In this document: positions 20,247 through 26,029 of the stretch, one piece after another
How positions within the stretch are numbered: the first letter of the stretch is position 1
How the letters are laid out: every line of letters starts with the position of its first letter
Source: a virus
Taxonomy: Duplodnaviria > Heunggongvirae > Uroviricota > Caudoviricetes
Length of the DNA stretch: 26,029 bases
Strand: one strand, 5' to 3'
Virus record (IMG/VR): IMGVR_UViG_2671180637_000024
Span: 1-26,029 of that record
Translations under genes and position numbers: made by a program
The notes under the pieces: model-generated
Told to the model about the DNA's origin: nothing
The model's database searches: none
What the model saw: the letters and a program-made list of their open reading frames with translations, nothing else

Positions 20247-20923
20247 GCAAATACACCGAACTAATCACAAACTACCACGCCACCAAACCTAAATTTCTTT
20301 CACATGTTGATCTGATGACCAGGCCGCTTATTGATGTTGCGGCTGCCACCAGAGGGCTGATTACTGCATTTGATATTGACTCTGCGGTTGGTGTGCAACT
20401 TGACATTCTGGGATTGTGGATCGGACGTAGCCGTGTTGTCAGCCAGCCTATCTCAGGTGTCTATTTCAGTTGGGATACCGACGGGCTTGGATATGATCAG
20501 GGGGTATGGCAGGGGCCATATGATCCTGATTCCGGATACATGTATCTCAGCGATGAAACTTATCGTGTCATTCTTAAAGCGAAGATTGCGATTAATAACT
20601 GGGACGGACGTAATGATTCGCTTCCGGCAATTCTTGACGCGGCAACAGCAGGATCCGGGCTGCGAATGCAGATAGTCGATAACCAGGACATGACGATATC
20701 GGTCTGGGTCTTTCCTGATACTGATATTTCAGATGTATCGCGTGAGTTAATTGCGGCAATTAAACAGGGGTATCTCACAGTAAAAGCCGCCGGGGTATGG
20801 GCGGGGGGCATTGAAACTCCTTCGGTGGAAACCCCATCGGAAGGCTCAAAATTTTTTGGTTTTGATATGGATAACGAATTCATCAGTGGTTTTGATGTAG
20901 GAGCATGGGGAGTATTACTCTGA
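20243..20923 (+). CDS. tail protein I-like (baseplate wedge/tail fibre attachment)
   Basis: 226-aa product between J-like and tail fibre genes, ATGA coupling at both ends. Confidence 0.55.
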
Positions 20924-21717
20924 TGGCGAAAAATGACTTTAAAGCGTTTGCAACTGATCGAAATGCCAATGTTATGTCGCAGGAGGAATGGGAAGCGTTG
21001 CCTGCGCTTTTATCCGGATTTACAGCAGGGAAAGCATCCAGTGCGCAGGTGAACAAAGCCATTCGACAGGCCAGCTTTATTGCTGCAGCTTTGGCCCAGT
21101 TTGTAAGTGACAAAACGCAACGGGATGTGCTTGATAATGGTGATCTGCCCGGTTTTGTTGAATTGCTTGGATCGGGGTTTGCTGTTGAATACCTGAGCCG
21201 CAAAAATCCGTTTGGCGATATCAAATCGGACGGCACAGTGAAAACGGCTCTCGAAAACCTTGGTTTGGGAGAAGGTGCCCCAGCTATTGGCGTTCCGTTC
21301 TTCTGGCCCTCCGCGGCAATGCCAAATACTGTAATCGACAGCTGGTCCGGTATGGTGTTTTTGAAGTTCAACGGGGCGAAATTTTCTGCCTCTGATTACC
21401 CTGTGCTGGCGAAAGTGTTTCCTTCGCTGGTATTACCTGAAGCCCGCGGTGATTTCATTCGTATCTGGGATGACGGGCGAGGTGCAGATGGTGGTCGCGA
21501 ATTATTAAGCTGGCAGGAAGCTACAAACTTTTCTCAGTTTGCCGGGAATATAGGCGGAGGTGCGGGACACGCAATTAACTTTCATGATGGCATTGCCGGA
21601 AATCAGCCAGGATTTTCACGATTTAATTTCACCAGTAACTCTGTGGGTGATGGTGTGAATTTTGTTGCTGTCAGACCGCGAAATATTGCATTTAACTTTC
21701 TGGTGAGGGCTAAATAA
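20923..21717 (+). CDS. tail fibre protein (constant N-terminal part plus currently expressed variable C-terminal part)
   Basis: Precedes a tail fibre assembly gene; contains the left hix/gix-like crossover site in-frame at 21248-21273. ATG 20923 (ATGA overlap, GGGGAG upstream) preferred over ATG 20905. Confidence 0.7.
21248..21273 (+). repeat. left recombination (crossover) site of the invertible tail-fibre segment
   Basis: CTCTCGAAAACC-TT-GGTTTGGGAGAA resembles the hixL site as I recall it (TTCTTGAAAACC-AA-GGTTTTTGATAA); present in inverted orientation at 22994-23019. Confidence 0.6.
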
Positions 21718-22310
21718 TGAAACCTGTTTTTGATAAAAATGGGCTGGCTACAGTGCCGGGCGATATGCGTTGTTTTTATTATGATGCTGAAACATCTGAG
21801 TATACGGGCTGGTCTGATGAATATATTAATACTGGCGTAAGTATGCCCGCCTGTTCCACTGGTATTGACCCGGGCGAAAACATTCCGGGGAAAGTGGCAG
21901 TATTTACGGGTAAGGGATGGAGCCATGAAGAAGACCATCGCAATGAGACTGTTTACTCAACAGAAAATGGCGCAGCTGTTACAGTGGATTATATCGGTGC
22001 CATCAAAAACGGTTATGTCACGCTTTCACCGTTAACGACATATGATAAATGGGATGGTGAGAAATGGGTGACAGATACTGAGGCACAGCATAACGCCGCA
22101 GTAGAAGCAGCAGAAGCACAGCGCCAGTCACTGATTGATGCAGCAATGGCTTCCATTAGTCTGATTCAGCTGAAATTACAGGCCGGACGGAAACTGACTC
22201 AGGCAGAAACAACCCGACTTAACGCCGTGCTGGATTACATTGACGCGGTGACGGCAACAGATACCAGCACCGCGCCGGATGTCATCTGGCCTGAACTGCC
22301 GGAGGCGTAG
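21717..22310 (+). CDS. tail fibre assembly protein (expressed orientation)
   Basis: 197-aa product following the tail fibre gene with TAATG coupling; C-terminal TSTAPDVIWP motif shared with the oppositely oriented copy. Confidence 0.75.
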   Translation: MKPVFDKNGLATVPGDMRCFYYDAETSEYTGWSDEYINTGVSMPACSTGIDPGENIPGKVAVFTGKGWSHEEDHRNETVYSTENGAAVTVDYIGAIKNGYVTLSPLTTYDKWDGEKWVTDTEAQHNAAVEAAEAQRQSLIDAAMASISLIQLKLQAGRKLTQAETTRLNAVLDYIDAVTATDTSTAPDVIWPELPEA

Positions 22311-22710
22311 GCCATTCAATATCGGGTGCTGTTGACGTATCAACACGCATCAGCAGCACACGGTATTTCTTCCATTGGGTGAGAGCTGTAGCTTCTTCAT
22401 CAGTTGCGATATCAGCATCAACAGCATCCTGATGCCAGGATATTTCACTGTCAGCTTTTTCCCGTAATTGGGATTTTTTAACTTCAGCAATAGCTATTAA
22501 TTCCTTTTTGGTCGGCTGAGGAATATCTATCAGTGCTGGTTTTCCATTCAGTGTTCCAATCTGTTTTCCTGGTGGAATATCCATAAATAACTTTTTATGT
22601 TCTTCCTCACTGACTATTAAACCATCATCAGGCCACAGACCTGATGCCTCAAATTTTTCTTTCTCCGATATGGGGAAAAAGCCATTTGCTTTAGCGCTCC
22701 ATACGTACAT
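22282..22710 (-). CDS. alternative tail fibre assembly protein (silent orientation)
   Basis: 142-aa minus-strand ORF converging on and overlapping the + strand tail-fibre assembly gene by 29 nt; C-terminal TSTAPDIEWP motif; directly follows the alternative fibre segment. Confidence 0.7.
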   Translation of the reverse strand: MYVWSAKANGFFPISEKEKFEASGLWPDDGLIVSEEEHKKLFMDIPPGKQIGTLNGKPALIDIPQPTKKELIAIAEVKKSQLREKADSEISWHQDAVDADIATDEEATALTQWKKYRVLLMRVDTSTAPDIEWPTPPAVQAR

Positions 22711-22711
22711 A

Positions 22712-23005
22712 TCAATACCCCACCGCTATAATGTCCACATTAAATCCCCCGGGACCTGCCTGCCAGATGCTGGCCCCTGTTAATGATTTTGTTTGATGAA
22801 CAACCGCCACATTTGCTGGCGATAGTGTTTCAGTTGTTACAGTACCGATATCATTCCAGTTAATTGAGATGGAATAGTTCGTTGTTGTAAACGACCGGGG
22901 GAAAGTTATGTGTCTTGCATTGGTGCCAACAGGAAATCCAAGATAAACACGCTGAATTATCATTCCTCCAGGTAACATAACCCAGTTAGCACCTTCTCCA
23001 AAACC
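22712..23005 (-). CDS. alternative tail fibre variable C-terminal segment (promoterless; expressed only after inversion)
   Basis: Minus-strand frame …GFGEGANWVML… aligns with the + strand fibre at …GLGEGAPAI… exactly at the crossover site; inversion at the 2-bp core would give an in-frame fusion to the constant N-terminal 113 codons. Confidence 0.6.
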   Translation of the reverse strand, partial: GFGEGANWVMLPGGMIIQRVYLGFPVGTNARHITFPRSFTTTNYSISINWNDIGTVTTETLSPANVAVVHQTKSLTGASIWQAGPGGFNVDIIAVGY

Positions 23006-23019
23006 AACGTTTATGAAAA
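22994..23019 (+). repeat. right recombination (crossover) site of the invertible segment
   Basis: TTCTCCAAAACC-AA-CGTTTATGAAAA; its reverse complement matches the left site over TTGGTTTnGGAGAAGGTGC (19 of 20). Confidence 0.6.
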
Positions 23020-23073
23020 TGCAGAAATAACGAGCAAATGGCATCATTCCTGCTTTTGTCAGGGAGATCTACC

Positions 23074-23628
23074 ATGCTTATTGGCTATGTACGTGTGTCA
23101 ACAAATGACCAGAACACAGATCTACAACGTAATGCGCTGAACTGTGCAGGATGCGAGCTGATTTTTGAAGACAAGATAAGCGGTACAAAGTCCGAAAGGC
23201 CGGGGCTGAAAAAACTGCTCAGGACATTATCGGCAGGCGACACACTGGTTGTCTGGAAGCTGGATCGGCTGGGGCGCAGTATGCGGCATCTTGTCGTGCT
23301 GGTGGAGGAGTTGCGCGAACGAGGCATCAACTTTCGTAGTCTGACTGATTCAATTGATACCAGCACACCAATGGGACGCTTTTTCTTCCATGTGATGGGT
23401 GCCCTGGCTGAAATGGAACGTGAACTGATTGTTGAACGAACAAAAGCAGGACTGGAAGCTGCTCGCGCACAGGGACGAATTGGGGGACGTCGTCCCAAAC
23501 TTACACCAGAACAATGGGCGCAGGCCGGGCGATTAATTGCATCAGGCGTTCCTCGCCAGAAGGTGGCGATCATCTATGATGTTGGCGTATCGACTTTGTA
23601 TAAGAAGTTTCCGGTCGGAGATAAATGA
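23074..23628 (+). CDS. site-specific DNA invertase, serine recombinase (Hin/Gin/Cin/Pin family)
   Basis: N-terminus MLIGYVRVSTNDQNTDLQ with the catalytic serine context, plus C-terminal HTH GRRPKLTPEQ…VGVSTLYKKFP, closely matching Hin/Gin as I recall them; ATG 23074 with AGGGAG upstream (ORF track start 23038). Confidence 0.9.
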   Translation: MLIGYVRVSTNDQNTDLQRNALNCAGCELIFEDKISGTKSERPGLKKLLRTLSAGDTLVVWKLDRLGRSMRHLVVLVEELRERGINFRSLTDSIDTSTPMGRFFFHVMGALAEMERELIVERTKAGLEAARAQGRIGGRRPKLTPEQWAQAGRLIASGVPRQKVAIIYDVGVSTLYKKFPVGDK

Positions 23629-23688: not shown

Positions 23689-24558
<870 letters not shown>

Positions 24559-25276: not shown

Positions 25277-26029
25277 GTGGATGATATGGCAACTACATGT
25301 TCAGTTATATTGATTTTGGAGTCCTTTGATGTTTATTTCGGAAAAGAGAGTGTGTTTCTGGAGAGAGGTTCATCTGTACTTGTCGACTCTAGCTCTAGAG
25401 ATTTTTTCCTGACATATCCTGAAAGAGTGATAGTGGCGGATTTTGGCGCTGAGTTTATTAGTCGCTATTTGAAAGCTAATAACTTAAGGGATATTTCTGA
25501 TTGTAGGGAATATCCATCTTATTTAAAAATAAACTTTGCTGACTTCAGTTTAATTAAAGGATTAATTAGTTGGGCTAATCACTGTGCTGAATACATAGAA
25601 ATTTTTGATGAGTCTATTGCTTTTACATGTCTCTCTGCATTTTCTTCTGAAAAACAATTTGGAGTATTTCTGTTTGGATGTTTGAAAAGCACAGGGGCTA
25701 AAGTTAAAACGATTATTCATACGGATTTATCTGCACCATGGCGTCTTAAGGATATATCATCAAGATTATATCTCAGCGAAAGTTTACTAAAGAGGAAATT
25801 GAAAGAAGAGGGGGTATCATTCAGTAAGATCATACTTGATGAGAGGATGCAAATGGCTGAATATTTACTCAGCACTCGTTGTTATCCTATTAGTAAAGTA
25901 GCTAAGGTCTGTGGTTATGCCAGTGTCTCATACTTTACTTATGTATTTAGACGTTATTTTGGTGTTTCTCCAAGTCAATACTCTCAGAGGAGTTCAGAAA
26001 GTAAAATTCTTACTCACCAGGGAATCTGA
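25277..26029 (+). CDS. AraC/XylS-family transcriptional regulator
   Basis: C-terminal region …ISKVAKVCGYASVSYFTYVFRRYFGVSPSQY… is a typical AraC-type HTH; AT-rich gene in AT-rich flank outside the prophage; stop at the window end. Confidence 0.7.
   Translation: MDDMATTCSVILILESFDVYFGKESVFLERGSSVLVDSSSRDFFLTYPERVIVADFGAEFISRYLKANNLRDISDCREYPSYLKINFADFSLIKGLISWANHCAEYIEIFDESIAFTCLSAFSSEKQFGVFLFGCLKSTGAKVKTIIHTDLSAPWRLKDISSRLYLSESLLKRKLKEEGVSFSKIILDERMQMAEYLLSTRCYPISKVAKVCGYASVSYFTYVFRRYFGVSPSQYSQRSSESKILTHQGI

Follow-up and report, generated by a model that had tools for sequence, protein, structure and literature searches.

Genes at the invertible locus

The window, by which the whole stretch of 26,029 nucleotides analysed here is meant, bears a complete structural module. 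Its tail-fibre gene, delineated by open reading frame and translation, occupies 20923..21717 on the plus strand and encodes in its present form (form A) a protein of 264 aa; the start ATG at 20923 overlaps the stop of the upstream gene, and RefSeq annotates the fibre CDS of strain E423 with the same start. The constant N-terminus, codons 1-113 (20923-21261, plus strand), lies outside the invertible segment, which extends from 21261 to 23006 (1746 bp core to core), and the variable collar-type C-terminus A, codons 114-264 (21262-21714, plus strand; 151 aa), lies inside it. Codon 113, CTT (21259-21261), contains the core TT of the left crossover site. Among the PHROGs profiles, N-terminal tail-fibre families cover residues 1-119 and C-terminal families residues 103-264; given this split at residues 103-119, the family boundary coincides with the crossover.

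Each variable C-terminus is directly followed by its own Caudo_TAP gene. The form A tail-fibre assembly chaperone (21717..22310, plus strand, 197 aa), whose start overlaps the fibre stop (TAATG), was assigned by Pfam (Caudo_TAP, E = 5e-28) and PHROGs (phrog_105, tail fibre assembly, E = 2.6e-84), and the form B chaperone (22282..22710, minus strand, 142 aa) was recognized in the same way (Caudo_TAP, E = 1.9e-32; phrog_188, E = 3e-54). The two chaperone genes are convergent, with their 3' ends overlapping by 29 nt. The alternative C-terminus B follows on the minus strand (22712..23005), with 97 aa plus stop and a gp53-like C-terminal domain (Pfam Gp53-like_C, E = 2.8e-6, above the gathering score); in the present orientation it is unjoined to the fibre N-terminus. 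When the segment is flipped computationally at the cores, an open, in-frame fibre of 210 aa results, consisting of 113 plus 97 aa, and its own chaperone gene comes next. The earlier note had described such an in-frame swap after 113 codons, and the computation bears it out in all but one respect: the alternative C-terminus has 97 aa, the figure of 98 being that of codons including the stop. Its readings of the two junctions, ENL|GLGEGA on the left and INV|GFGEGA in the reverse complement of the right site, are both correct.

Searches of PDB sequences gave nothing significant for either form, with a marginal match to the T4 gp37 tip (E = 0.013) as the sole match of form A and none for the form B fibre, and NCBIfam held no equivalog for the invertase, the fibre or the GIY-YIG protein, whose gene lies downstream in the window. 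From the annotation, the fibre, which is very short at 210 or 264 aa, is assumed to be the primary receptor-binding protein of a myovirus-type tail.

A further reading frame approaches the segment from the side of the invertase gene pin. A leader of 14 codons, MMPFARYFCIFINV (23006..23047, minus strand), has its ATG outside the segment and reads across the right site; together with the present cassette B it forms an ORF of 111 aa (22712-23047), and after inversion one of 165 aa. The leader thus enters whichever cassette adjoins pin, and it is found fused to both cassettes in an ETEC locus (L006). The minus-strand ORF had previously been called silent; the ORF is indeed present, starting at the ATG at 23047 outside the segment, and its silence is an assumption.

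Crossover sites, invertase and candidate enhancer

Two 26-bp sites in inverted orientation delimit the segment. The left, pix-type site (21248-21273) reads CTCTCGAAAACC|TT|GGTTTGGGAGAA, with its core TT at 21260-21261 inside the Leu codon 113; the right site (22994-23019) reads TTCTCCAAAACC|AA|CGTTTATGAAAA, with its core AA at 23006-23007, and its reverse complement is TTTTCATAAACG|TT|GGTTTTGGAGAA. In inverted orientation the two sites agree at 20 of 26 positions, their inner half-sites are 1 nt apart, and their cores are the same when read in one polarity. Both agree with hixL at 20-21 of the 26 positions. An independent repeat search returned an inverted repeat of 24 nt with 92% complementarity (21255-21278 / 22989-23012). 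The sites have the 12-2-12 layout proposed in the earlier note. A scan with a degenerate 26-nt site pattern at up to three mismatches matched these two sites only in the 26-kb window and gave zero matches in 100 dinucleotide-preserving shuffles. With two sites only, the window does not hold a multi-inversion system such as Min or a shufflon.

The left site is identical letter for letter to the left site of e14 in K-12, and the right site differs from the e14 right site by 1 nt, located in the inner half. The published e14 repeat TTGGTTTGGGAGAAGG is contained in the window's left site (PMC12529663). The exact left site occurs in more than 119 viral contigs, and in a scan of one genome per species it was confined to E. 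coli records.

The invertase gene (23074..23628, plus strand, 184 aa; RBS GGGAG at 23062-23066) is intact and adjoins the right site, outside the segment, with 67 bp between the right core and the start codon, as in Mu gin. The protein carries the Resolvase (PF00239, E = 1.5e-51) and HTH_7 (PF02796, E = 3.5e-14) domains and the catalytic motif YVRVSTNDQ with Ser9 in place, in keeping with the family, whose members have about 180-190 aa and a catalytic serine near residue 9-10; its identity with K-12 PinE amounts to 97% and that with Mu Gin to 80%. Over its first 200 nt the gene is likewise 97% identical to K-12 pinE. The designation of the switch as Hin/Gin-type had the family right, and it can be specified as the e14 Pin/P-segment type by the 97% identity with PinE and by sites that are the same or 1 nt off.

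A Fis-dependent recombinational enhancer may reside in the 5' part of pin, where the Hin/Gin/Cin/Pin systems, which depend on Fis, HU and negative supercoiling, carry in cis a pair of Fis sites spaced by about 48 bp. The candidate region (23096..23158) contains two loose matches, centred at 23103 and 23151 and hence 48 bp apart, to a Fis consensus that is itself frequent, at about 7.3 occurrences per kb. The proximal candidate lies 96.5 bp from the right core. The enhancer of Hin comprises two Fis sites, about 100 bp from the nearest crossover site (PMC3798978). The candidate sites fit the published Fis consensus GNNNAWWWWWTNNNC poorly, and synonymous-site conservation between pin and Mu gin showed no peak over the expected enhancer region.

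Both orientations in related prophages and the reading of the switch

The window itself represents a single orientation; the evidence for both comes from near-identical copies elsewhere. Among E. coli genomes, a segment of equal length and 97-98% identity is found in either orientation. In the Korean E. coli isolates Z1323HEC0423 and Z1323HEC0067, the segment is 99.9% identical and flipped, with a left flank that is 100% identical over the 330 nt beside the site and 98.9% over 1500 nt, and a right flank that is 99.8% identical. E423 and JNEC-KY180 likewise hold the segment in opposite orientations. The flipped sites of JNEC-KY180 read CTCTCGAAAACC TT GGTTTTGGAGAA on the left and TTCTCCCAAACC AA CGTTTATGAAAA on the right, exactly the letters predicted for a crossover at the cores of the window's sites; in keeping with such a crossover, the inner half-site carries a G/T polymorphism that travelled with the segment. 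The flipped 210-aa fibre is annotated as a CDS both in Z1323HEC0067 and in JNEC-KY180, and so is more than a hypothetical product.

In IMG/VR contigs, one of the window's two cassettes stands in the expressed position 17 times and the other 7-8 times. Among complete genomes with at least 80% coverage, 35 records show the orientation of the window and 28 the flipped one, counts that are inflated by double-pin loci matching both queries and are not usable as a ratio. Taken together, the comparison of near-identical prophages indicates that inversion at these sites occurs in nature.

With a probability of about 0.9, we regard the locus as the device by which an E. coli prophage changes its tail fibre and thereby its host range, belonging to the e14 Pin/P-segment type within the Hin/Gin/Cin/Pin invertase family. 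Pin dimers (from 23074-23628) would bind both 26-bp sites, cut at the 2-bp cores (TT at 21260-21261, AA at 23006-23007), rotate the ends and rejoin them, so that the segment of 1746 bp would be flipped. As in the Hin and Gin reactions, this would presumably be assisted by the host protein Fis, bound to an enhancer near the start of pin. Transcription of the late operon would continue past the baseplate genes to the fibre, so that the first 113 codons are always made. In the present orientation these are continued by the 151-aa collar-type tip and followed by the 197-aa chaperone, in the inverted one by the in-frame 97-aa gp53-like tip and the 142-aa chaperone, so that the virions from a population of lysogens would come with either of two receptor-binding tips. 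The switch is probably active in this particular strain, and from the precedent of Mu and P1 the two fibre forms may be expected to differ in host range.

A different role has to be considered for the cassette on the pin side, namely that translation starts at the ATG at 23047 and turns it into a free receptor-binding domain. The switch would then benefit the lysogen, in addition or even primarily, by blocking the adsorption of other phages. Along these lines, Kirigo et al. (2025) described that inversion in e14 makes StfE2, a leader-fused gp53-like protein that blocks T2 adsorption (PMC12529663). The leader ORF of the window is the counterpart of this StfE/StfE2 reading frame (PMC12529663), and the window shows the corresponding arrangement at present, its leader being fused to a gp53-like domain in an ORF (22712-23047) that begins outside the segment and whose counterparts RefSeq annotates as CDS. 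Furthermore, there are ETEC genomes in which the segment is kept between two pinE genes beside avs2, without structural genes, and these double-pinE loci have both leader-fused ORFs and both chaperone genes intact. The blocking of T2 is nevertheless not transferable, because past the junction no similarity was detected between the gp53-like domain of the window and the StfP C-terminus of K-12. As read from the sequence, AGGA directly abuts the leader ATG, a poor Shine-Dalgarno spacing, and of promoter-like sequences the minus strand has only the one at 23255-23226, which does not exceed chance expectation (2 matches where 4.8 were expected). Chance readily leaves a near-palindromic site in an open frame that has an ATG no more than 40 nt away, as is also seen in Mu, and for a window with a full structural module the classical host-range role is sufficient. 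It is thus unlikely that the pin-side cassette acts as a lysogen-protecting free domain, that one inversion toggles both virion host range and lysogen defence, and that the ETEC double-pinE loci are the domesticated form of such a system.

It could also be argued that the locus is a frozen relic, in which sites and genes look intact and yet this copy no longer inverts, with pin unexpressed or the enhancer damaged and the fibre fixed in form A. The single orientation of the window would fit such a state, as would a simple sigma-70 scan that found no promoter-like sequence for pin, an enhancer demonstrable neither by the loose Fis matches nor by synonymous-site conservation, and the right site with its inner half 1 nt off the e14 site. 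The same right-site variant, TTCTCCAAAACC, is present in E423 as well, however, and its mirror image stands on the left in JNEC-KY180, from which it follows that sites with that base recombine. Since the invertase is of full length, has its catalytic serine and is 97% identical to the active PinE, in nucleotides also over the first 200 nt of the gene, and since related invertases can act in trans on these sites (PMC12529663), a permanently locked fibre is improbable here. That the inverted repeat is incidental, or that inversion proceeds by general homologous recombination instead of a site-specific reaction, can practically be discounted: chance can produce inverted repeats, but none matched in 100 shuffles, the repeat is just 24 nt long, the sites have the 12-2-12 layout with a Pin invertase adjoining, the junctions in the flipped relatives fall at the 26-bp site, and homology to other prophages begins or stops at 21255-21260 and 21274 of the window.

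The tail-fibre host-range switch is in itself already known, well annotated and widespread; RefSeq annotates such switches in thousands of E. coli genomes, and the earlier description as a known class of host-range switch is apt for what is a textbook Pin-type system. Beyond a correct annotation the locus is worth little. It does provide a clean example: the DNA itself displays the position of the crossover as well as the two products and their two chaperones, and flipped counterparts are known from nature. Moreover, one 26-bp junction is common to at least five unrelated cassette families, and the site thereby doubles as a module boundary for the swapping of fibre tips. The recent claim of an anti-phage role for inversions of this kind is touched by both the leader-fused ORF and the double-pin loci of ETEC.

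Relation to known inversion systems

Inversion of the e14 P segment by PinE has been measured experimentally, and its repeats have been reported (PMC12529663, PMC4272514); what the inversion does for e14 is called unclear in PMC12529663. The arrangement stfP-tfaP / tfaE-stfE / pinE recurs in the window, with a constant fibre part, a cassette with its chaperone, a convergent chaperone and cassette, and the invertase. The likeness extends to the 97% identical invertase, the same left site and a right site 1 nt off, the 22 conserved aa preceding the crossover, the same 29-nt convergent overlap of the chaperone genes, and the same 14-aa leader ORF on the pin side. On the other hand, the segment measures 1746 bp core to core in the window and 1827 in K-12, and the constant fibre N-terminus comprises 113 codons as compared to 97 in e14. 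Cassette A and K-12 StfE share no more than 41% identity, and cassette B bears no relation to the C-terminus of StfP. The baseplate module includes a DUF2612 wedge in the window and YmfQ in e14, the downstream gene is the GIY-YIG gene in the former and mcrA in the latter, and e14 is defective, in contrast to the window's prophage with its complete structural module.

The G segment of Mu with its invertase Gin (S/U versus S'/U') follows the same plan, with the constant Sc outside and the variable Sv plus chaperone inside in both orientations, and with an 80% identical invertase just outside the right site, at the same 67 bp from the right core to the invertase start. It differs in its size of about 3 kb, in fibres of about 500 aa, in the gix core GA as opposed to AA/TT in the window, and in cassettes that have no sequence relationship to those described here. 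The Hin/hix system of Salmonella shares the 26-bp sites, the 12-2-12 layout, the AA/TT core and a small serine invertase; Hin, encoded inside its segment, flips a promoter that chooses between flagellin genes, whereas the invertase of the window lies outside the segment and exchanges a coding C-terminus.

Crossover sites and the two forms of the fibre gene

The two inverted 26-bp sites that the earlier note had proposed were borne out by reading the sequence: the left site (21248-21273) is CTCTCGAAAACC-TT-GGTTTGGGAGAA, and the right site (22994-23019) is TTCTCCAAAACC-AA-CGTTTATGAAAA, with the reverse complement TTTTCATAAACG-TT-GGTTTTGGAGAA. Read in the same polarity, the cores TT and AA are identical, a prerequisite for rejoining after a 180-degree exchange. 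Independently, a repeat finder returned a 24-nt inverted repeat (21255-21278 and 22989-23012, 92% complementary), the longest found within the 5-kb region. A degenerate 26-nt pattern built from both sites, with up to 3 mismatches allowed, matched this pair only (n = 2) in the 26-kb window and nothing in 100 dinucleotide-preserving shuffles; hence there are exactly two sites, and they are not a product of chance. The right site is adjoined by the serine recombinase gene pin (23074-23628, plus strand), encoding 184 aa with Resolvase and HTH_7 domains and the catalytic serine in YVRVSTNDQ.

The fibre gene begins with the ATG at 20923, overlapping the stop of the preceding DUF2612 baseplate-wedge gene, and the identical start is used for strain E423 in RefSeq. 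Its product has 264 aa, and the core TT lies inside codon 113 (CTT, 21259-21261). The present variable part, form A, comprises 151 aa with a collar-type tip (41% identity to K-12 StfE); its stop and the start of a 197-aa chaperone gene overlap. In-silico flipping of 21261-23006 yielded an open 210-aa frame of 113 constant and 97 new residues, stopping 1 nt short of the ATG of a 142-aa chaperone gene, so that the expected in-frame alternative C-terminus with its own chaperone, form B, is indeed encoded. The count of 98 originally given for it thus includes the stop codon (97 aa without it), and such trivia aside the anatomy had been read correctly. Form B carries a Gp53-like_C domain, the Caudo_TAP assignment is clear for both chaperones, and the PHROG tail-fibre profiles divide at residues 103-119, the crossover point. 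The convergent chaperone genes share a 29-nt overlap at their 3' ends (22282-22310), annotated likewise in e14, a cryptic prophage of E. coli K-12, and in relatives; a DTSTAPD(V/I)xWP motif is common to both chaperone C-termini.

Inversion in natural prophages

The window as a whole represents a prophage of E. coli that combines lysis genes of lambdoid type with a structural module for a contractile tail. Matches to it were obtained in 30 complete E. coli genomes (≈ 97% identity, at least 80% coverage), and part of the region is shared by three database entries that bear vB_EcoM names and were submitted as phage genomes. A search of complete E. coli genomes with the window sequence and its flipped version gave full-length matches to both, E423 in the window's orientation and JNEC-KY180 in the flipped one, with a 210-aa CDS annotated for the fibre. 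The left junction of JNEC-KY180 reads ...AAACC TT GGTTTTGGAGAA ggtgctaactgggtt, the right junction ...ctggagcacc TTCTCCCAAACC AA CGTTTATGAAAA. The sole G/T difference between the inner half-sites moved with the segment and the outer half-sites stayed in place, which matches the prediction of exchange at the core. An even cleaner case comes from two isolates of Korean origin, Z1323HEC0423 and Z1323HEC0067, in which the 1746-bp segment is 99.9% identical yet inverted; left of it they show 100% identity over 330 nt and 98.9% over 1500 nt, and on the right flank 99.8%. The flipped-fibre CDS of Z1323HEC0067 is shorter because its prophage has a different, shorter constant part. For e14 of K-12, inversion of the P segment by PinE has been measured directly by sequencing, PCR and qPCR (PMC4272514; PMC12529663).

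The classical explanation is preferred, with a probability of about 0.9: inversion by Pin at both cores would swap fibre C-terminus and chaperone together, giving virions of two types. It is unlikely, and compatible with this explanation, that the pin-side cassette is expressed rather than silent. A leader ORF (22712-23047, minus strand) has its ATG outside the segment and provides a 14-aa leader, and the leader-fused gp53-like counterpart in e14, StfE2, was reported to block T2 adsorption (PMC12529663, 2025); on the other hand, ribosome-binding-site spacing is poor, a promoter was not evident in a scan of the sequence, and the window's gp53-like domain is unrelated in sequence to its K-12 counterpart. 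That the window's copy is frozen is conceivable for the single sequence at hand, but very improbable, the switch being without visible damage. Chance pairing of inverted sites, or RecA-dependent inversion, is effectively excluded by the empty shuffles and by the JNEC-KY180 junctions, which are as core exchange predicts.

Leader ORF, candidate enhancer and neighbouring genes

The ATG of the leader ORF and the start codon of pin lie 27 nt apart on opposite strands; the ORF corresponds to the StfE/StfE2 frame of e14. At least 15 complete ETEC genomes hold the same 1746-bp segment, at ≈ 97% identity to that of the window, flanked by a divergent pair of pinE genes; both orientations are represented among them. 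These loci, such as L006 2385-5338 (NZ_LR883050.1, strain L1_E925), adjoin avs2 and lack the fibre constant region and any tail genes; the two cassettes have kept open frames (165 and 111 aa), each fused to the same 14-aa leader, and neither chaperone gene is disrupted.

Hin-family invertases require a Fis-bound enhancer. With a loose Fis consensus, two candidate sites are centred at 23103 and 23151, 48 bp apart, the proximal one 96.5 bp from the right core. The enhancer of Hin lies ≈ 100 bp from hixL (PMC3798978). The geometry of the candidate is suggestive but weak, since the consensus occurs ≈ 7 times per kb, the two sites fit published consensus forms poorly, and a synonymous-codon comparison of pin with gin gave no conservation peak over them. 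As the first 200 nt of pin are 97% identical to K-12 pinE, any enhancer of pinE, whatever its nature, has very probably been retained.

Beyond pin, 23689-24513 (minus strand) encodes a 274-aa LEM-3-like GIY-YIG domain protein (Pfam E = 4e-14; phrog_5356, a family of unknown function, E = 6e-143), in the place held by mcrA in e14; the gene accompanies pin in several unrelated prophage contexts. An AraC-family regulator gene runs from 25277 to the window end at 26029 (plus strand), its best match, YdeO, being sub-threshold (148 bits, cut-off 348); the same gene also adjoins that for the GIY-YIG protein in both Z1323HEC0423 and ETEC L1_E925.

The site as module boundary and comparison with known systems

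Similarity to other prophages sets in or breaks off at the site: of the E. coli matches, many start at 21255-21260 and some stop at 21274. More than 119 viral contigs of IMG/VR carry the left site in exact form, followed by at least five unrelated C-terminal families among the matches listed: a StfE-like collar type (at least 87 contigs), form A (at least 17), form B (at least 7-8), the K-12 StfP type (at least 2) and other cassettes (at least 2). Fibres with an otherwise unrelated N-terminus and an unrelated baseplate module still share the 22 codons that precede the crossover (21196-21260), and megablast matches from prophages with such differing modules start at 21196. The region L007 4349-6565 (ON470588.1, phage vB_EcoM-611R5) combines the two crossover sites and form A with another B cassette; the invertase annotated there spans just 315 nt and so may be truncated.

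The baseplate module of e14 is of the YmfQ type, whereas that of the window is of the DUF2612 type, and the 22 pre-crossover residues are common to both. Pin-type systems were first described in the same species, E. coli. The window's invertase is 97% identical to PinE and 80% to Gin of phage Mu; the left site matches its e14 counterpart in full, the right site in all but 1 base, and the published e14 repeat TTGGTTTGGGAGAAGG (PMC12529663) is found in the window. Gene order agrees with both the e14 P region and the Mu G region, and the 67 bp from the right core to the invertase start codon equal the distance in Mu. The switch is already known, with near-identical sites and invertase and standard-pipeline annotation, from many genomes.
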